Assembly: GCA_022653695.1 (NCBI GenBank)
Contig: JALCSW010000001.1
Location: forward strand, 53,979-117,978
DNA: 64,000 nucleotides
Direction of reading: 5' to 3'
DNA from: Bacilli bacterium
GTDB lineage: Bacteria > Bacillota_I > Bacilli_A > RFN20 > CAG-826
The notes below the pieces were generated by a model. The model did no database searches, was not told where the DNA came from, and saw only the letters and a list, made by a program, of their open reading frames with translations. The position numbers and the translations under genes were made by a program. Below, in pieces: positions 2,767 through 14,904 of this stretch; the first letter of the stretch is position 1, and each line of letters begins with the position of its first letter.

Positions 2767-2906
2767 GGACCCCCTCCTTGTTTGGGCCCATTCTATAGCG
2801 GAGAAAGGCGGAGGGCAACGGAATAAGGCCGTTTATGCGTCAGGAAAGCGCTACGATGGGACAAATCGGGCATATCAATCTATACTGAAGGACGGAGAAC
2901 AAAACC

Positions 2907-3836
2907 ATGGAAAGCGAAAGAACGCATCCGTTGCTCTTTACCTTAGGCTCGAACCCGAGCCTCGCCCGAGGAACCTCGATTCTCGCCGGGCTGCCTCTTT
3001 CCAAAGCCTATGCGGGCCACTACGCCGACGGTGAATCTTTCGACAAGCCCCTCGATGACGTCGCGGGGCGCGATTGCTATCTGATCCATTCGACGTCCCG
3101 TCCCGTCAACGAAAGGCTGATGGACCTCTTGGTTTTCGTGGATGCCCTCGTGCGCGCCAACGCCCGCTCAATCACCGCGATCGTGCCTTATTTTGGCTAT
3201 GCCCGACAAGACCGAATCGTCGAGCCCGGCGACCCCGTAAGCGGTCTTCTCGTCGGGAAAATGCTCCGCGCGGCCGGGCTCACTCGCCTCGTCACCGTGG
3301 ATTTCCATTCGCTCAAATTGCTTGATGAATTCCCGCTTCCGCACGTGAACCTCACCGCGGAAGGCCTTTTCGCCAAAAGGTTCGCGAGTCTGCTGAAGGA
3401 AGAAGGGGTTACTGAGGGTGACGTCGCGATCGTCGGCCCCGACAAAGGGAGCCTGCCCCGAATAAGCCAGTTCGCCCAAAACTTCAAAGGATCCGCCATC
3501 GCATTTGCCGACAAGAGCCGGCCCCGGCCCAATCAAGCCGTCGTGCACGGCATCCATGGGGACGTCGCCGGGAAAACCTGCTTGGTTTTCGACGACATGA
3601 TCGACACCGCCGGCACCATCGGCGAGACGGTGAAGGCCCTTTACGCAAAGGGAGCCGCCGGCGTCCACGTCGCGGCCACGCACGGCATTTTCTCGGGAGA
3701 GGCCCAAAAAACCCTTTCCGGCATCGGCATCCGCTCGCTCTTCGTGAGCGATTCCATCGAACGGGAAAAGCCCGTCGGCGAAATCGTGAGTTTGGCCCCG
3801 CTTCTGGCGGATTTCATCCTCAAGGATCGCCGATAG
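2907..3836 (+). CDS. prs: ribose-phosphate pyrophosphokinase (PRPP synthetase), divergent
   Basis: 309 aa. Prs N-domain (HSTSRPVNERLMDLL, YFGYARQDR) and PRTase-type C-domain (LVFDDMIDTAGT). Several otherwise conserved positions are substituted. Confidence 0.8.
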   Translation: MESERTHPLLFTLGSNPSLARGTSILAGLPLSKAYAGHYADGESFDKPLDDVAGRDCYLIHSTSRPVNERLMDLLVFVDALVRANARSITAIVPYFGYARQDRIVEPGDPVSGLLVGKMLRAAGLTRLVTVDFHSLKLLDEFPLPHVNLTAEGLFAKRFASLLKEEGVTEGDVAIVGPDKGSLPRISQFAQNFKGSAIAFADKSRPRPNQAVVHGIHGDVAGKTCLVFDDMIDTAGTIGETVKALYAKGAAGVHVAATHGIFSGEAQKTLSGIGIRSLFVSDSIEREKPVGEIVSLAPLLADFILKDRR

Positions 3837-3955: not shown

Positions 3956-4031
3956 TGGTGCCGACTAGAGGAATCGAACCCCCAACCTACTGATTACGAT
4001 TCAGTTGCTCTGCCAATTGAGCTAAGTCGGC
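3956..4031 (-). tRNA. tRNA-Thr (anticodon CGT)
   Basis: Minus strand reads GCCGACTTAGCTCAATTGGCAGAGCAACTGAATCGTAATCAGTAGGTTGGGGGTTCGATTCCTCTAGTCGGCACCA. Anticodon loop ATCGTAA, T-loop TTCGATT, CCA encoded. Confidence 0.85.
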
Positions 4032-9784: not shown

Positions 9785-10246
9785 ATGATCGAAGCGAAAT
9801 TCCAAGTCGGCCTCATGGCGGACGCCAAAGCCATCCGCCTTCGGGTCTTCAAAGAGGAGCAAGGCTACGAAAACGAGTTCGACGGGGATGAAGGCCGCGC
9901 CATCAACCTCGTGCTGTATTTGGACAAAAAACCGATCGGGACGGCGCGGCTGGTCGAAATCGACCCCGAGACGTATCGGGTGGGGCGCGTCGCCGTCTTG
10001 CCCGAGTACCGCCACCACAAAATCGGGACGTATCTCCTGAAATTCATGCAGGTCAAGGCCAAAACCCTCGGGGCCCGCCAACTCGTTTTGGGGGCGCAGC
10101 TCGACAAGACCGCCTTCTATGAGCGGCTCGGTTACGAAAAGGATCCCACGGGGGAGCTCTTTTTCGACGAAGGGCACCCCCACATCATGATGAGGAAGAC
10201 TTTGAAGTTCAGGAAAAGTCGAAGGAAAGGCGCGAACGGCCGTTAG
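9785..10246 (+). CDS. GNAT family N-acetyltransferase
   Basis: 153 aa. GNAT motif A (RVAVLPEYRHHKIGTYLL) and typical beta-alpha topology signature. Confidence 0.8.
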   Translation: MIEAKFQVGLMADAKAIRLRVFKEEQGYENEFDGDEGRAINLVLYLDKKPIGTARLVEIDPETYRVGRVAVLPEYRHHKIGTYLLKFMQVKAKTLGARQLVLGAQLDKTAFYERLGYEKDPTGELFFDEGHPHIMMRKTLKFRKSRRKGANGR

Positions 10247-11058
10247 ACGTTGCCGAGGTAAACGTGCTTCAGGTAGCGTCTCGCCACCGCCGCCAGTTCG
10301 GATAGGGCGCCCACATCCGTCGGGGGCTCTTTTTCTTTGTAACGCGGGAAGTAACGGGTGATATGAAGCGCGATCGCGGGGTCAAGCGAGGCGATCCACC
10401 TGGCCTCTTCTTCCATCATGGCCTTCGAATCGTTATGGCCCGGGACGATGAGCGTCGTGATTTCGAGGTGGCTTTCTCGGCAAGCCAGGGCGATGAAATC
10501 CTTCACCATCCCCAAATCGCCGCCGACGAAACGGTAAAATTCATCCGAAAAGCCCTTGAGATCGACGTTCATCGCATCGATGTAGGGAAGGATCTGCCCC
10601 AAAACGTCGAGGGAGGCCGTCCCGTTGCTCACGAGAACGTTAAGAAGGCCCCGCTCATGGATTAGGCGGGCGCAATCGCGCACGAACTCATAGCCGACGA
10701 GAGGCTCGTTGTACGTGTAGGCGAGGCCGATGTTCCCTTGCCTGAGGAGTTCCTGAGCGCAGTCAACGAGAGCCTCGGGGGTCAGGATGTCCGCGCTTGA
10801 GGAAAGGTCGAACTGCGAGATTTCGTAGTTTTGGCAAAACGGGCAACGGAGGTTGCAGCCATAGCTGCCCACCGACAGGATTTTGGAGCCGGGGTGGAAA
10901 AGCAAAAGAGGCTTCTTTTCGATCGGGTCGAGGGAAAGGGAAGTGACGGCCCCGTAGTTTTTGGCTACGATGCGGCCGCCTCTATTGACGCGGGCCCGGC
11001 AAAATCCCACTTGGCCCTCCGCGAGCTCGCAATGGCGGAAGCAAACGGGGCACCTCAT
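10243..11058 (-). CDS. amrS: AmmeMemoRadiSam system radical SAM enzyme
   Basis: 271 aa. CxxxCxxC radical-SAM cluster (GCNLRCPFCQN) plus N-terminal Cys pair (CPVCFRHC). Family-typical HPGS...SYGCNLRC context. Overlaps the upstream Memo/AMMECR1 gene by 4 nt. Confidence 0.7.
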   Translation of the reverse strand: MRCPVCFRHCELAEGQVGFCRARVNRGGRIVAKNYGAVTSLSLDPIEKKPLLLFHPGSKILSVGSYGCNLRCPFCQNYEISQFDLSSSADILTPEALVDCAQELLRQGNIGLAYTYNEPLVGYEFVRDCARLIHERGLLNVLVSNGTASLDVLGQILPYIDAMNVDLKGFSDEFYRFVGGDLGMVKDFIALACRESHLEITTLIVPGHNDSKAMMEEEARWIASLDPAIALHITRYFPRYKEKEPPTDVGALSELAAVARRYLKHVYLGNV

Positions 11059-12437
11059 TCGTGACGCACGACCGTGAAACGGAAGAGCTTAACCGGCGCC
11101 TCGGGGGCGATCCCGGCCTTTTTTTTGCAGATGGCGACCTGCTCGTCCGCCGTCTCGACGTTGGGAAGATCGGGCAAAAGAAGGCCCCTTTTGCCGTCGT
11201 TTTCGACAATGAGGCCGTATTTGCGGGGATTAAGCTCCGCCATGGAATCGACCGGTTCGGGGTCGCCAAGGACATCCACCGAAATCTTGAGATACGGGAT
11301 TTCTTTCTCCTCGATCGGGTCGAAGCGCGGGTCTTCGCTGGCGGAGGCGATGGCGTTGGCGACGATTTCCTTGCCGATGTTGCCCTGACTCGCTTTGGTG
11401 GTCCCGACGCAACCGCGAAGCTGGTCGAACTCATGGATCGAGACGAAAACGCCGGCCCGTCGGCCCGTTAACCCAGAGGGGACCTCACGCCCGGAAAGCT
11501 CCTTGCCCTCCTTCACGAAAACGTCGATCGCGTCGTAAGCCAGAAGGACGTAGGGGTCCGCCGCCGCTCGCTTGTTCCGGACTTCGAGGGCCTGCCGCGA
11601 ATAGTAGGCTTCGGCGAAGGAACGGGATGGATCGGCGGGGCCGGCGAGATACTCGCAGACTCCATACCCGACCCCGCAGGGGGCCTCATGCGACAGTTTC
11701 TTGGCTTTGACGGCCGTTCGGTCGAGCGCCCCGGCCATGATGAGGAAACTCCGGTGGCCGCATTCCTCGGCCTTCTCGAGGAAAGCGCCCGAGAAGGCGA
11801 GAAGCTCCCCAAAGGCGCCCCGCTGCATGAGGTCCATGAGGCGCTTGTCGTACTCCGGGCCCTCGGGCTCGTAGCCATAGGGGCCGTCTTCCTTTTGGCA
11901 ATGCGACAGGTCTCCGCTGGCGATGAAGACGATTCTTTTCTTCGTTTCGTCGCAAGCCCTTTTGATCAGCTCGCCGAAACGGTAATGGTCGATGAGGGGA
12001 AGCCCGCTTAAGCCAACCCTGACGAGACGATACGAGGTGTAGTGGCGGTTCACGAAAAAGAGCGGGACCATCGTTCCGTGATCGAGGTAGCGTTCCTCGT
12101 TGCCTTCCGTCCCCGCGGGGAAACGCTGGATTTTGGCCATGAGGGAGATGCGTTCGACGAGCTCGTAATCGTATTGGCAGCGGAACGTCACCCGAGGGAC
12201 GCCGAATTGGGAGAAAGAGCCGGTGACGACTTCCCCGTCGCTGATCTGGAAATAATCGGCGTAAGCCTCCGCGTGGGGGCTCGAAACGATGATCGTGTCG
12301 GGCTGAAGGCGGGCGATTTCCCGCCCCACTTTGTCATAGGCGTCCAAAGTGGCCTGGGCCTTGAGGGCGTCCGAGGCGTCGACGCCCGGGATGAGCATCG
12401 GCGGATGGGGAACCATGAAAGAAGCGATGATGGGCAT
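11055..12437 (-). CDS. fused AmmeMemoRadiSam system protein B (Memo-like) / protein A (AMMECR1 domain)
   Basis: 460 aa. The N-terminal ~270 aa is Memo/AmrB-like (class III extradiol-dioxygenase-like fold, IIVSSPHAEAY, GDLSHC). The C-terminal ~190 aa is an AMMECR1 domain (GVFVSIHEFDQLRGCVG...DPRF...LLLPDLP). Confidence 0.7.
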   Translation of the reverse strand: MPIIASFMVPHPPMLIPGVDASDALKAQATLDAYDKVGREIARLQPDTIIVSSPHAEAYADYFQISDGEVVTGSFSQFGVPRVTFRCQYDYELVERISLMAKIQRFPAGTEGNEERYLDHGTMVPLFFVNRHYTSYRLVRVGLSGLPLIDHYRFGELIKRACDETKKRIVFIASGDLSHCQKEDGPYGYEPEGPEYDKRLMDLMQRGAFGELLAFSGAFLEKAEECGHRSFLIMAGALDRTAVKAKKLSHEAPCGVGYGVCEYLAGPADPSRSFAEAYYSRQALEVRNKRAAADPYVLLAYDAIDVFVKEGKELSGREVPSGLTGRRAGVFVSIHEFDQLRGCVGTTKASQGNIGKEIVANAIASASEDPRFDPIEEKEIPYLKISVDVLGDPEPVDSMAELNPRKYGLIVENDGKRGLLLPDLPNVETADEQVAICKKKAGIAPEAPVKLFRFTVVRHE

Positions 12438-12511: not shown

Positions 12512-12539
12512 TTTACGAAAAAAGGGCGAATGGTATAAT
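12512..12539 (+). promoter_or_regulatory. sigma-A type promoter with extended -10 (TTTACG - 16 nt - TGgTATAAT)
   Basis: TTTACG at 12512-12517 and TGnTATAAT at 12531-12539. Sits just upstream of the riboswitch-like leader. Confidence 0.5.
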
Positions 12540-12544
12540 GGGGC

Positions 12545-12640
12545 CGCTCATATAATCCCATCGACTGGCGTGGGAGTCTCTACCGAGCCGCCGCACGGCT
12601 CCGCTATGGGCGCTCATTTTGCTGAGCCCCATTTTTTCAT
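12545..12640 (+). ncRNA. purine (guanine-type) riboswitch aptamer plus terminator-type expression platform; inferred ON switch
   Basis: P1 CGCUCAUA/UAUGGGCG. J1-2 UAAUC. L2 ...CUGG. J2-3 GUCUCUACC (xpt consensus GUUUCUACC). P3 GAGCC/GGCUC with a 7-nt loop containing CC. J3-1 ends in C (C74 equivalent, guanine specificity). Downstream hairpin GGGCGCUCA..UGAGCCCC plus UUUUUU shares GGGCG with the P1 3' strand. Confidence 0.6.
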
Positions 12641-12655
12641 AAAGGAGAGACAAGC

Positions 12656-13912
12656 ATGAAAATCCTCAAAGGCCGTCTGATCCAAGCCCCGAAGCTGGGA
12701 GAGATCCTCGCCTATCCGAACGGAGGCCTCCTCCTCGACGAGGACGGAGCCATCCTCAAAGTCTACGAAACCGTGCCGCGGGAAGCCCCCTGCGAAGTCG
12801 TCGACTACGGGGACAGGCTGATCATGCAATCCTTCGCCGACATGCACCTCCACGGCCCCCAATACCCGATGCTCGGGATGGGCATGGACCTTCCGCTCAT
12901 CGAATGGCTGAAGACATATACCTTCAAAACCGAATCGCGTTTTTCCGATCCCGAATACGCGCGAGGCGTTTACCGCAAACTGGCCCATAAACTCATCGCC
13001 AACGGCACCACCCGCGTCGCGATGTTCGGCTCGCTCCACGTCGATGCCACCCTCATTCTGATGGAGGAACTCGAGAAGGCCGGCCTGACCGGCTACGTCG
13101 GGAAAGTCAACATGGACCGCAACAACGAGCCCTACCTCACCGAAACGAGTGAGGAAAGCGAACGGGAAACCCTTCGCTGGCTCGACGAATGCGGCCGCTT
13201 CCGCTACATCCGCCCGATCCTGACCCCCCGCTTCACCCCGAGTTGCACGAACGGGCTCATGGCTTTCCTAGGGAAACTTTCCGCCGAAAGGCGCCTCCCC
13301 GTCCAATCGCACCTAAGCGAGAACGAGAACGAGATGGCCTGGGTCCATAGGCTCCATCCCGACACCACCCATTACTACCAGTCCTACCAAAAGTACGGCT
13401 TATGGAAAAAGAGGACCCTCATGGCCCATTGCGTCCATAGCGACGAAACGGAACGGAAAGCCATGAAGGAGGCCGGCGTCTACCTCGTCCACTGCCCCGA
13501 CAGCAACGTCAACCTCGTTTCCGGGGTCTGCCCCGTGAGGACCTTCCTCAACGAAGGCGTCAACGTCGTCCTGGGCAGCGACATCGCCGGAGGGGCGCTC
13601 CTGCCGATGTCCCAAAACATCCAGGAAACGATCAAAATCAGCAAAATCCATTCGATCGCCACCAAAGGCAAGGACGCCTTCCTTTCCGTGAATGAGGCCT
13701 ATTACCTCGCCACCACGGCCCCGGCCCTCTATTTCGAAGGGGGCGCGGGGTTCGAGGAAGGGAAGAAACTCCACGCGATCGTGGTCGACGACAGTTCCTT
13801 TTGCCCCGCGACGAGGCCCCTCAGCCTGCAGGAACGCTTTGAGCGCGCCATCTACATGATGGGCGAAAGCAACATCGTGGCCGTCTACAGCGAGGGCCGC
13901 AAAGTCCTCTAG
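12656..13912 (+). CDS. amidohydrolase-superfamily protein, probable guanine deaminase
   Basis: 418 aa. Metal-binding HxH (DMHLHGPQ), TIM-barrel amidohydrolase pattern with downstream His/Asp ligands (HCVH, DSNV...GSD). Purine-riboswitch leader supports a purine substrate. Confidence 0.6.
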   Translation: MKILKGRLIQAPKLGEILAYPNGGLLLDEDGAILKVYETVPREAPCEVVDYGDRLIMQSFADMHLHGPQYPMLGMGMDLPLIEWLKTYTFKTESRFSDPEYARGVYRKLAHKLIANGTTRVAMFGSLHVDATLILMEELEKAGLTGYVGKVNMDRNNEPYLTETSEESERETLRWLDECGRFRYIRPILTPRFTPSCTNGLMAFLGKLSAERRLPVQSHLSENENEMAWVHRLHPDTTHYYQSYQKYGLWKKRTLMAHCVHSDETERKAMKEAGVYLVHCPDSNVNLVSGVCPVRTFLNEGVNVVLGSDIAGGALLPMSQNIQETIKISKIHSIATKGKDAFLSVNEAYYLATTAPALYFEGGAGFEEGKKLHAIVVDDSSFCPATRPLSLQERFERAIYMMGESNIVAVYSEGRKVL

Positions 13913-14034: not shown

Positions 14035-14904
14035 TTAAAGAAGGAATTCGTCTTTCAGCCGAGCGGAGAGGGAAGGGGGCAAAAAAGCCTTGTCCCCGAA
14101 TGCGACGAAGGAAGACAAAACGGATCTCTCCTCGCGAAGAACGGATAGGGCCCAGTCCTTCCTAAGGCCCATCCGTTGGGCGGAACGGACGAAGTCATCG
14201 TCGACGAAACCATCCAATTTGCCATTAATCGTCATTTGGCGATGCTTGCTCCATTGTCCGTTCTCATTGTGGGAAAAAGACAAATCATAAGCCGGCGCGA
14301 GTCTCCATGAACCGTCGCGATCCATAAGAAAGGAGATGTTCTTCACGTGATCGTCGTCGTTTTGGGCCACCGCATTGAAGACCATGCGACGAAACAGTTG
14401 CTCCGTTTCCTTTTTCCCACCATGAAGGCGATCGATTATTCCGGCCACTTCTTCATAGGAATGGGCCCCCGGATCCCTGAAATCGAATCCGGCGAGGCCC
14501 GCCAAAGAAAGCATATGCGTCTTCTTTCCTTCCGCGGTCCGGTCAAAACGTTCGGTGAGAAAATGATAATGGCCGCCCGGCATCGGAAAAAGACGGGATG
14601 GCATCATCTCGATTCCGCATGAAACGGCCGCCAAATAGTATGCGTATTCAATTCTCGTATAGTACGTTTTGCCGCCATCCTCGCTTTCTTCGCTCGTGAG
14701 GCCATCGAACTTCAAAATCCCGTATTCGTATCTTTTTAAACCGGAGATCTGACCGGATCTGATTTCACCGTTAGGGCCTAAGGCGATCACCGCTTTGGCC
14801 CGAGCCCCGCCAATCGAGGAACCAACGGCCACCAGTTGGGCGAGACTCGCCTCGTGAATATCGGCTCTGGCTTCCTCGTTCACCGATTGAGAAAGGAAAA
14901 GCAA
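14035..14904 (-). CDS. short HipA/HipT-like Ser/Thr kinase (C-terminal kinase domain only; orphan)
   Basis: 289 aa. Gly-rich loop SIGGARAK, catalytic DDHVKN and Mg-binding LAPAYDLSF motifs are intact. No ATG start (TTG/GTG only), no HipA N-domain, no adjacent hipB/hipS. Confidence 0.5.
   Translation of the reverse strand: MLFLSQSVNEEARADIHEASLAQLVAVGSSIGGARAKAVIALGPNGEIRSGQISGLKRYEYGILKFDGLTSEESEDGGKTYYTRIEYAYYLAAVSCGIEMMPSRLFPMPGGHYHFLTERFDRTAEGKKTHMLSLAGLAGFDFRDPGAHSYEEVAGIIDRLHGGKKETEQLFRRMVFNAVAQNDDDHVKNISFLMDRDGSWRLAPAYDLSFSHNENGQWSKHRQMTINGKLDGFVDDDFVRSAQRMGLRKDWALSVLREERSVLSSFVAFGDKAFLPPSLSARLKDEFLL

Follow-up and report, generated by a model that had tools for sequence, protein, structure and literature searches.

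In the 64-kb stretch of DNA that we analyzed (hereafter, the window), a gene on the forward strand (12656-13912) encodes a 418-amino acid amidohydrolase that resembles guanine deaminases. It is monocistronic, the next gene being convergent, and we found no purine-catabolic cluster among the neighboring genes checked. The protein belongs to Pfam Amidohydro_1 and its best NCBIfam match was the guanine deaminase family TIGR02967, at 308.9 bits and under the curated equivalog cut-off of 375.4, followed by a second-best family at 148 bits; the 8-oxoguanine deaminase model NF006055, with a cut-off of 532, gave just 76 bits. The best solved relative was 2I9U of C. acetobutylicum (328 bits, E = 8e-97), after which the guanine deaminases of human, yeast, and E. 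coli ranked, and the HxH, PRF, SHLSEN, HC.H, and GSD motifs were conserved in the alignment. These comparisons support the guanine deaminase-like character that an earlier note on this DNA had proposed for the protein.

Upstream of the gene, and like all features below on the forward (+) strand, a sigma-70-like promoter was located at 12512-12539 (10 of 12 positions matching, with TG). Specifically, a -35 element TTTACG (12512-17) was separated by a 16-nt spacer from an extended -10 element TGgTATAAT (12531-39). Such promoter-like sites numbered one observed against 0.6 expected, and the orthologous leader L003 has this promoter too, while all orthologous leaders had a promoter-like CTTGCA/TTGACA...TAnnnT just 5′ of the first aptamer helix, P1. 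The predicted transcription start, at approximately 12545-12547, coincides with the first bases of P1, so that this helix may be just 6-7 bp long. A fold begun at 12540, the MFE structure of which paired GGGGCCG with the 3′ strand of P3, was dropped because those Gs precede the predicted start; lying between the -10 box and that start, they are probably not in the transcript, and refolding of the leader was begun at 12544-12546.

The leader contains a guanine-I type purine riboswitch aptamer with a three-way junction (12545-12612), recognized by RF00167 and by covariation in orthologous leaders. The covariance-model search returned 47.2 bits, above the gathering score of 37, and covered the model in full; E was 8.6e-5 for both strands of the entire 64-kb window, in which this was the sole RF00167 match. 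Our own model, R1, gave the aptamer 68.9 bits. P1 pairs CGCUCAUA (12545-52) with UAUGGGCG (12605-12), J1-2 is UAA (12553-55), P2 is formed by 12556-61 and 12570-75, and L2 (12562-69) carries GG at 12567-68. J2-3 is the 8-nt GUCUCUAC (12576-83), P3 has six Watson-Crick pairs (12585-90/12596-601), L3 (12591-95) carries CC at 12591-92, and J3-1 is the dinucleotide GC (12603-04). The canonical guanine-I pocket is complete, comprising U12553 (U22), U12577 (U47), U12581 (U51), and C12604 (C74), and the GG of L2 and the CC of L3 can form the G-C pairs of the loop-loop kiss. The earlier note had thus correctly placed a purine riboswitch 5′ of the deaminase gene, with its P1, its specificity-determining C at 12604, and its GG/CC loop pairs. 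Two details needed correction: the J1-2 that it gave as UAAUC is UAA, the UC being part of P2, and the P3 that it described as a perfect 5-bp stem has the six pairs listed above and a C-C mismatch at its base.

The window aptamer also has peculiarities. Two positions at helix ends form C-C mismatches, G takes the place of the consensus A at position 73, and L3 is 2 nt short of the family model, so that further loop-loop contacts could not be mapped. Its RF00167 score is modest, 47 bits compared with 78-100 bits for typical guaA and guaB aptamers. The short L3, the C-C mismatches, and G73 make its binding strength uncertain. The aptamer is a plain member of the purine riboswitch family, and the pocket points to guanine as the ligand. 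Guanine-I aptamers reportedly bind hypoxanthine and xanthine as well (Mandal et al. 2003, Batey et al. 2004), and the low family score, G73, and short L3, like the position of the enzyme under the guanine deaminase equivalog cut-off, would fit a functional aptamer whose physiological ligand is another purine, be it hypoxanthine, xanthine (the product of the enzyme), or a modified guanine. Moreover, close variants of the fold have shifted to xanthine, 8-oxoG, and 2′-dG via small changes in the junction (PMC9295807, PMC10556655). We consider such a ligand quite improbable, however: all known ligand-contacting bases are of the guanine-I type, J2-3 and J3-1 have guanine-I length, the changes that define the 8-oxoG, xanthine-II, guanine-II, and adenine classes are all absent, and the enzyme has a guanine deaminase as its best structural relative and falls far below the cut-off of the 8-oxoguanine deaminase model.

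Membership in other described classes was ruled out. In the case of the 8-oxoguanine riboswitch, U47 is present, J2-3 has 8 nt, and NF006055 reached 76 rather than 532 bits (criteria of PMC10556655). In the case of xanthine-II and guanine-II, J2-3 and J3-1 lack insertions and U51 is kept (criteria of PMC9295807). An adenine riboswitch, with U74, is ruled out by the C at 12604.

An intrinsic terminator (12606-12637) with a 10-bp hairpin of -13.7 kcal/mol overlaps the end of the aptamer. Its 5′ arm (12606-12616, with C12611 bulged), loop UUUUGC (12617-22), and 3′ arm (12623-12632) form the hairpin GGG(C)GCUCA-UUUUGC-UGAGCCCC, followed by A and the U tract UUUUUU (12632-37). The earlier note had the 3′ strand of P1 and the 5′ arm of the terminator sharing five nucleotides; the sharing is real and extends to 12606-12612, that is, seven of the eight nucleotides of the P1 3′ strand, owing to the extra pairs A12606-U12632 and U12607-A12631. 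In the region as a whole, terminator-like patterns were not in excess (three found, 3.6 expected in shuffles), and a simple terminator scan reports just the inner 5-bp stem of this one, so that what makes it significant is where it lies and that it is conserved in orthologous leaders, not a pattern count. In L003, the hairpin is conserved, with changes.

P1 and the terminator were mutually exclusive in folding calculations, as the earlier note had anticipated. The free MFE structure of the window leader consists of P2, P3, and the terminator, without P1 (-32.1 kcal/mol), while enforcing the aptamer gave -28.1 kcal/mol, or -30.8 kcal/mol when the transcript begins at 12546 and P1 has 7 bp; the resulting gap between states of 1.3-4 kcal/mol comes from a nearest-neighbor model that ignores tertiary contacts and ligand. 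Pair probabilities in the full leader were 0.74-1.0 for the terminator and approximately 0.05 for P1, and with the aptamer enforced a residual hairpin of 4-5 bp alone was left, 5 nt from the U tract. In stepwise folding, the aptamer was the MFE fold for 3′ ends from 12612 to 12630 and was lost only at 12632.

We therefore favor, with a probability of about 0.78, a canonical guanine-I riboswitch that acts as a transcriptional ON switch from the extreme 5′ end of a monocistronic mRNA for guanine deaminase. RNA polymerase would start at approximately 12546 and make the aptamer first, with P1, P2, and P3 expected to be most stable once the 3′ strand of P1 (12605-12612) emerges. The aptamer would then stay favored for about 20 nt, until the 3′ arm of the terminator is nearly complete. 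Guanine bound in the junction, in a Watson-Crick pair with C12604 and in contact with U12553, U12577, and U12581, would lock P1; hypoxanthine or xanthine would presumably bind more weakly. With P1 locked, only a 4-5-bp stub (GCUCA/UGAGC), 4-5 nt from the U tract, could form, and polymerase would read through so that the deaminase is made. Without ligand, the 3′ arm UGAGCCCCAU would nucleate on the free CUCA and displace the 5′ strand of P1 by branch migration, giving the 10-bp hairpin beside U6, and transcription would halt ahead of the gene. In sum, guanine in excess would switch on its own deamination to xanthine.

We pursued this wiring in orthologous loci, in 56 of 80 of which the same aptamer lies directly 5′ of the gene (51 above the RF00167 gathering score and five further by our own model). 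All 55 full-length orthologous aptamers have C74, and all have an 8-nt J2-3, GUNUCUAC, with a 2-nt J3-1. Among 45 distinct orthologous leaders, the covariation expected by the earlier note was found for P2 (6/6 pairs) and P3 (6/7 pairs), with double-sided changes; P1 was uninformative, being mostly invariant. In total, 14 pairs had double-sided changes, paired cells amounted to 92% compared with 35-55% for slid registers, and none of 500 shuffles reached the observed covariation values. The kissing positions were G-C in 42-43 of the 45 sequences. The terminator 5′ arm overlapped the P1 3′ strand in every terminator-bearing orthologous leader (50/50), by 2-7 nt, which bears out the ON wiring claimed by the earlier note. 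In many orthologs the overlap is just 3-4 nt and leaves a strong residual hairpin, separated from the U tract by 2 nt, which makes the magnitude of the switching effect in these unclear. Five leaders are free of a terminator, and in their free folds the SD/AUG pairs with strands of the aptamer, an apparent translational version of the ON switch.

A pattern scan of metagenomes for close relatives of the window leader returned only unrelated guanine and adenine riboswitches, namely those of guaA and guaB, a guanine plus ykkC-type tandem, and one with U74. These gave no covariation for the terminator within the clade of the window and were reused as OFF-type controls. When folded, the guaA and guaB control leaders, which stem from other organisms, showed OFF wiring, their terminator either being compatible with P1 or being released by it.

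Guanine riboswitches are normally OFF switches (PMC9295807, PMC10556655), as the earlier note had also stated, and this holds for most described guanine-I members (PMC9295807). Taken with the low family score and a GC-rich P1 that might form without ligand, this could suggest that the window holds an OFF switch, or else an aptamer that has decayed beside a constitutive attenuator, without guanine-dependent activation. We regard both as very improbable. An alternative anti-terminator is absent and the terminator itself incorporates the 3′ strand of P1, here as in all of the terminator-bearing orthologous leaders, and a ligand-stabilized P1 can therefore only oppose termination; on these grounds, the OFF reading was rejected. 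The invariant pocket bases and the covariation of P2 and P3 argue against decay, and the OFF-type control leaders differ under the same analysis.

The ribosome-binding site, AGGAGAG (12643-12649), lies 6 nt 5′ of the ATG. At 12646-51, AGAGAC is perfectly complementary over 6 nt to GUCUCU of J2-3 (12576-81), and the unconstrained MFE structure of 12546-12690 contains this pairing, the relevance of which is uncertain. Dual control, in which the ligand would also free the ribosome-binding site that unliganded read-through RNA would otherwise pair with J2-3, seems unlikely to us, and it would be an addition to the main explanation and not an alternative to it. The leaders L001, L002, and L023/31/32/64, which seem reliant on sequestration of the SD/AUG by aptamer strands, are in line with it, as is the complementarity itself. 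However, the pyrimidine-rich J2-3 of the purine riboswitch family has partial complementarity to every purine-rich SD, the probability that the SD is unpaired was little altered (0.21 in the free leader and 0.37 with P1 forced), the complementarity is down to 5 nt in L003, the closest relative (AGAGAG), and the J2-3 variant U48C does not track the SD sequence among orthologs.

ON platforms are well known in the purine riboswitch fold, and the transcriptional ON switch favored here has likenesses to several described systems. The B. subtilis xpt-pbuX riboswitch (RF00167) shares the three-way-junction aptamer with U22, U47, U51, and C74, the GG/CC kissing pairs, a P1 core that is almost the same (CUCAUA/UAUGGG), and regulation through intrinsic termination; the window aptamer departs from it in its G73, short L3, and lower family score. 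Most described members, xpt among them, place the 3′ strand of P1 in an anti-terminator, so that guanine turns expression off, and they control genes for the synthesis, salvage, or uptake of purines, whereas in the window that strand is in the terminator, predicting an ON switch, and the gene is catabolic. The B. subtilis pbuE (ydhL) adenine riboswitch has the same fold, a terminator that shares the 3′ part of the aptamer, and an ON response in which ligand-locked P1 blocks termination, the decision being kinetic and co-transcriptional. It differs in its U74 (adenine), in controlling a purine efflux pump, and in a terminator that also invades P3, while that of the window shares P1 only. In the add adenine riboswitch (Vibrio vulnificus/Clostridium perfringens), a purine aptamer likewise turns on a deaminase, that for adenosine, when a purine is abundant. 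It is adenine-specific and translational, by sequestration of the SD/AUG, unlike the guanine-type, putatively transcriptional switch of the window; the leaders L001 and L023/31/32/64 resemble its translational solution.

Closer in gene content, the 8-oxoguanine riboswitch of Paenibacillaceae is derived from guanine-I, precedes a purine deaminase of the amidohydrolase superfamily, and is an ON switch with a terminator overlapping P1, but it is without U47, has a 7-nt J2-3, and rejects guanine, whereas the window aptamer has U47 and an 8-nt J2-3 (PMC10556655). Guanine-II and xanthine-II are variants of the same fold and predicted ON switches, xanthine-II being tied to purine degradation genes; both have J2-3 and J3-1 extended by insertions, accompanied in xanthine-II by U51G, while the window aptamer is free of these insertions and retains U51 (PMC9295807). 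The earlier note had called the arrangement rarely documented, and in the literature searched we did not find an association of a guanine riboswitch with guanine deaminase (guaD), as an ON switch or in purine catabolism, an earlier mention elsewhere being possible. Likewise, the main text of Barrick & Breaker 2007 is silent on a link between guanine riboswitches and guanine deaminase.

None of the three outcomes that the earlier note had named as refuting its reading was obtained. On the evidence of sequence, we regard the element as a true guanine-I riboswitch of a type already known, conserved and wired to switch on guanine catabolism. A wider and more tentative reading, to which we lean less than to its negation, is that the window represents an undescribed, widespread guanine-I subgroup with aptamer peculiarities that is dedicated to inducing guanine catabolism. 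If so, the subgroup would span no fewer than 56 species-level genomes, chiefly of Oscillospiraceae from gut and rumen and of other Clostridia, together with the Bacilli-like MAG lineage of the window, and would use as ON platforms a terminator sharing P1, sequestration of the SD by J2-3, or sequestration of the SD/AUG by the P3 3′ strand. The peculiarities are a low family score, G73, and a short or variable L3, and one third of the members carry a coupled A24G and C insertion; these features might tune selectivity, for example against the product xanthine.

Conversion of guanine to xanthine is the entry into purine fermentation in gut and rumen anaerobes. If confirmed, the switch would mean that canonical guanine riboswitches also induce purine breakdown, beyond feedback repression of purine supply, and that this role spans a large set of these anaerobes. 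A guanine-ON switch before a guanine-degrading gene would be a sensible, seldom described use of a well-known RNA element, and the riboswitch in turn backs calling the sub-threshold amidohydrolase a guanine deaminase. For annotation, a purine riboswitch match should not be equated with repression by guanine unless the expression platform is inspected. Additionally, a compact natural guanine-ON transcriptional switch, with approximately 90 nt between the start and the U tract and with only P1 shared, could serve as a genetic part. The apparent ON wiring itself recurs in dozens of related bacteria from guts and bioreactors.

The deaminase-like gene, a 418-aa ORF at 12656-13912 (+), is separated from a divergent gene at 11055-12437 (-) by an intergenic gap of 218 bp that contains four elements. 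A promoter-like site at 12512-12539 (TTTACG, a 16-nt spacer, and TGgTATAAT; a 10/12 match with an extended -10 box) is followed by a 68-nt three-way-junction RNA at 12545-12612, a hairpin and U6 tract at 12606-12637, and an AGGAGAG ribosome-binding site 6 nt ahead of the ATG. The purine family model (RF00167) matched in full at 12528-12626 (+), its 47.2 bits exceeding the gathering score of 37 (cmscan, Rfam 15), and this was the single riboswitch in the whole window by that search. The purine riboswitch that the earlier note had read in this leader is thus borne out, and we consider its presence confirmed at the level of sequence, while its interpretation as a guanine ON switch is supported by the folding models and the conserved wiring described below.

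Within the aptamer, P1 is formed by CGCUCAUA and UAUGGGCG, P2 by UCCCAU and GUGGGA beneath an 8-nt L2 with GGC at its end, and P3 by GAGCCG and CGGCUC beneath L3 CCGCA, with the junctions UAA (J1-2), GUCUCUAC (J2-3), and GC (J3-1). The parts named previously hold apart from details, in that J1-2 has 3 nt and P3 6 pairs; likewise, the proposed hairpin and U6 are present, with a bulged C and 2 bp more than had been stated. In the solved guanine aptamer, the ligand is contacted by U22, U47, U51, and C74, all of which are kept in the window (12553, 12577, 12581, and 12604, respectively). Relative to the family consensus, L3 is short by 2 nt, C-C mismatches occur at the P2 inner end and the P3 base, and position 73 is G, not A; G73 and the short L3 are among the main uncertainties.

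Adenine riboswitches carry U74, and this class was rejected because position 74 of the window aptamer (12604) is C. The 8-oxoguanine class, which is without U47 (PMC10556655), was rejected because U47 is present; xanthine-II, characterized by U51G and insertions in J2-3 and J3-1 (PMC9295807), because U51 is kept and these junctions have no insertions; and guanine-II, with insertions in both J2-3 and J3-1 (PMC9295807), because neither junction has one. Since no variant-class junction change was found, the window aptamer is classified from its sequence as plain guanine-I type. It is unremarkable within this very familiar family, and any Rfam-based annotation would already label it.

Folding of the leader from a start at 12544-12546 up to the U tract gave an MFE structure of -32.1 kcal/mol that comprised P2, P3, and a 10-bp terminator (12606-16 paired with 12623-32, C12611 bulged), with P1 missing. 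When the aptamer was enforced, the energy was -28.1 kcal/mol, or -30.8 kcal/mol with a 7-bp P1, and the terminator was reduced to a residual 4-5-bp stub (GCUCA/UGAGC) ending 4-5 nt short of the U tract. Ensemble pair probabilities were 0.74-1.0 for the terminator and ~0.05 for P1 under an energy model without ligand binding and tertiary contacts, both of which would favor the aptamer state. In growing transcripts, the full aptamer was the MFE structure from the synthesis of 12612 through 12630, and the terminator won only at 12632. The ligand would accordingly have a capture window of ~20 nt during transcription, after which the invading terminator 3′ arm would use a 4-nt toehold, CUCA. P1 is the sole element common to aptamer and terminator, and, because of this folding order and the mutually exclusive structures, the modeled layout matches that of a kinetically controlled ON switch. 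The ON wiring proposed earlier, in which P1 competes with the terminator, is supported by both the MFE fold and the stub left in the aptamer state.

One main uncertainty is the predicted transcription start at the P1 edge. A G+C-rich stretch, GGGGCC (12540-12545), lies between the -10 box and this start; were transcription to begin further upstream, the P3 3′ strand and the terminator 3′ arm (through its GCCCC) would become possible partners for its G's, which would alter the fold, and such pairing is present in the fold begun at 12540. Additionally, J2-3 GUCUCU (12576-12581) is a perfect complement of AGAGAC (12646-12651), which lies in the ribosome-binding region, and the free MFE fold of the full leader contains this pairing. 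It may provide an additional layer of control, at translation, or simply reflect chance complementarity of purine- and pyrimidine-rich stretches.

A protein scan with one genome per species recovered 80 orthologous loci of the deaminase gene (L001-L080). The ortholog in a MAG labeled Bacilli bacterium UW_MP_BACIL4_1 (L003) is 97% identical, and the differences between its leader and that of the window map to the terminator (loop and arm) and the variable portion of L2, with both hairpins intact. The remaining orthologs (60-67% identity) belong mostly to gut, rumen, and digester bacteria of the Oscillospiraceae and other Clostridia. RF00167 scored above gathering directly upstream of the gene at 51/80 loci, and a covariance model built from these added 5 (56/80). 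All 55 full-length aptamers have C74, the base before P1′ (12604 in the window) from which the earlier note had assigned the guanine type, together with an 8-nt J2-3 (GUNUCUAC) and a 2-nt J3-1.

In an alignment of 45 distinct sequences, 92% of cells formed pairs, compared with 35-55% in slid registers, and the observed values were reached by 0/500 shuffles. Double-sided changes occurred in 14/24 pairs, with covariation in 6/6 pairs of P2 and 6/7 of P3, and both loop-loop G-C pairs were kept in 42-43 of the 45 sequences. Covariation therefore supports P2 and P3, while the inner P1 pairs are uninformative because they are invariant. Fifteen of the 45 aptamers have G for A at position 24 and a one-base C insertion directly before G46 (columns 11 and 35 of this alignment, A1), always together (G-C in 15/15; e.g., L043, L044, L050, L054, L057, L069, L071, L076, and L077), which would lengthen P2 by one pair beside the binding pocket; the window aptamer has neither change.

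The deaminase-linked aptamers scored 40-59 bits against RF00167, in contrast to 78-100 bits for guaA/guaB-linked or tandem aptamers on other contigs (L081, L082, and L085), and form a somewhat divergent subgroup near the gathering threshold. Some members may therefore escape routine annotation, the 5 loci above having needed the custom model. Among these other contigs, L085 (2256-2446; also L087 and L088) carries a purine aptamer (100 bits) followed immediately by a ykkC-type aptamer (RF00442, 78 bits), resembling the known guanine + PRPP tandem and unrelated to the window, and L081 has a group II intron domain match (10942-11063; RF02001, 84 bits) alongside two typical purine riboswitches.

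The terminator 5′ arm begins inside the P1 3′ strand in 50/50 orthologous leaders with a hairpin and U tract, with an overlap of 2-7 nt and zero in none, and forcing P1 shifts the leftover stem 2-5 nt off the U tract. Five leaders have no terminator (L001, L023, L031, L032, and L064); in their ligand-free folds the ribosome-binding site or start codon pairs with J2-3 or the P3 3′ strand, a sequestration that the models indicate to be a translational ON form. In four of these (L023, at 2901-3003, L031, L032, and L064; MAGs, some labeled Alphaproteobacteria UBA6347/UBA6411), the same gene is again preceded by a guanine-type aptamer, whose P3 3′ strand and J3-1 sequester the ribosome-binding site and start codon by pairing, as in a translational ON version like the add riboswitch, and in L001 J2-3 pairs with the ribosome-binding site. 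In L002, one hairpin is both terminator and sequestrator of the ribosome-binding site. A promoter-like site lies directly upstream of P1 in each orthologous leader. By the same analysis, guaA/guaB guanine riboswitches from unrelated metagenome contigs behaved as OFF, in that P1 and terminator coexist or forced P1 releases the terminator.

Of the 24 orthologs that have no aptamer, most lie right behind another gene or have another promoter and a GTG start. In many (L022, L026, L030, L033, L034, L036, L041, L046, L049, L051, L072, L074, and L075), the gene directly follows, or overlaps the end of, a conserved coding region that lies before position 3001 and ends ...GDVGGSQVI...DIDT, which suggests an operon with another gene in place of riboswitch control.

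The ON platform in the window is of a known type. Its mechanism is like that of the pbuE adenine riboswitch, in which the terminator competes with P1 and ligand leads to read-through, and its biological logic is shared with the add adenine and 8-oxoG riboswitches, through which a purine turns on the deaminase that acts on it. Guanine-I riboswitches are described as controlling purine biosynthesis, salvage, and uptake by lowering expression (PMC9295807) and as predominantly associated with biosynthesis and transport genes (PMC10556655). No paper in the literature searched connects guanine deaminase with a guanine or purine riboswitch, although an earlier mention may exist. What is added here is the predicted use of the canonical guanine class as an inducer of guanine catabolism, and the conservation of this wiring in dozens of species, where it takes three mechanistic forms.

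For the 418-aa protein, the top NCBIfam model was guanine deaminase (TIGR02967) at 308.9 bits, under the equivalog cut-off of 375.4, and this sub-threshold score is one main uncertainty; the second-best family reached 148 bits and 8-oxoguanine deaminase 76 bits. The Pfam domain is Amidohydro_1. Among solved structures, 2i9u of Clostridium acetobutylicum ranks first, with a full-length match of 328 bits (E = 8e-97) and conservation of the motifs for metal binding and catalysis (HxH, PRF, SHLSEN, HC.H, and GSD), ahead of guanine deaminases from human, yeast, and E. coli.

Downstream, a convergent 289-aa ORF (14035-14904, -) contains only a HipA C-terminal kinase domain (HipA_C, 154 bits), and the deaminase gene is therefore monocistronic. 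No further purine-catabolic gene was found among the neighboring ORFs scanned; the only purine-related gene among those selected (2907-27032) encodes ribose-phosphate pyrophosphokinase (PRPP synthetase; 2907-3836, +), located ~9-12 kb upstream with three tRNA genes (440-510, 617-689, and 3959-4031, -). Finally, of the two genes divergent from the riboswitch gene (10243-12437, -), one encodes a 460-aa LigB/Memo-like and AMMECR1 fusion (AmmeMemoRadiSam system A, with a weak B signal) and the other its radical SAM partner (TIGR04337, 224 bits), so that the three-component AmmeMemoRadiSam system appears to be condensed into two genes.
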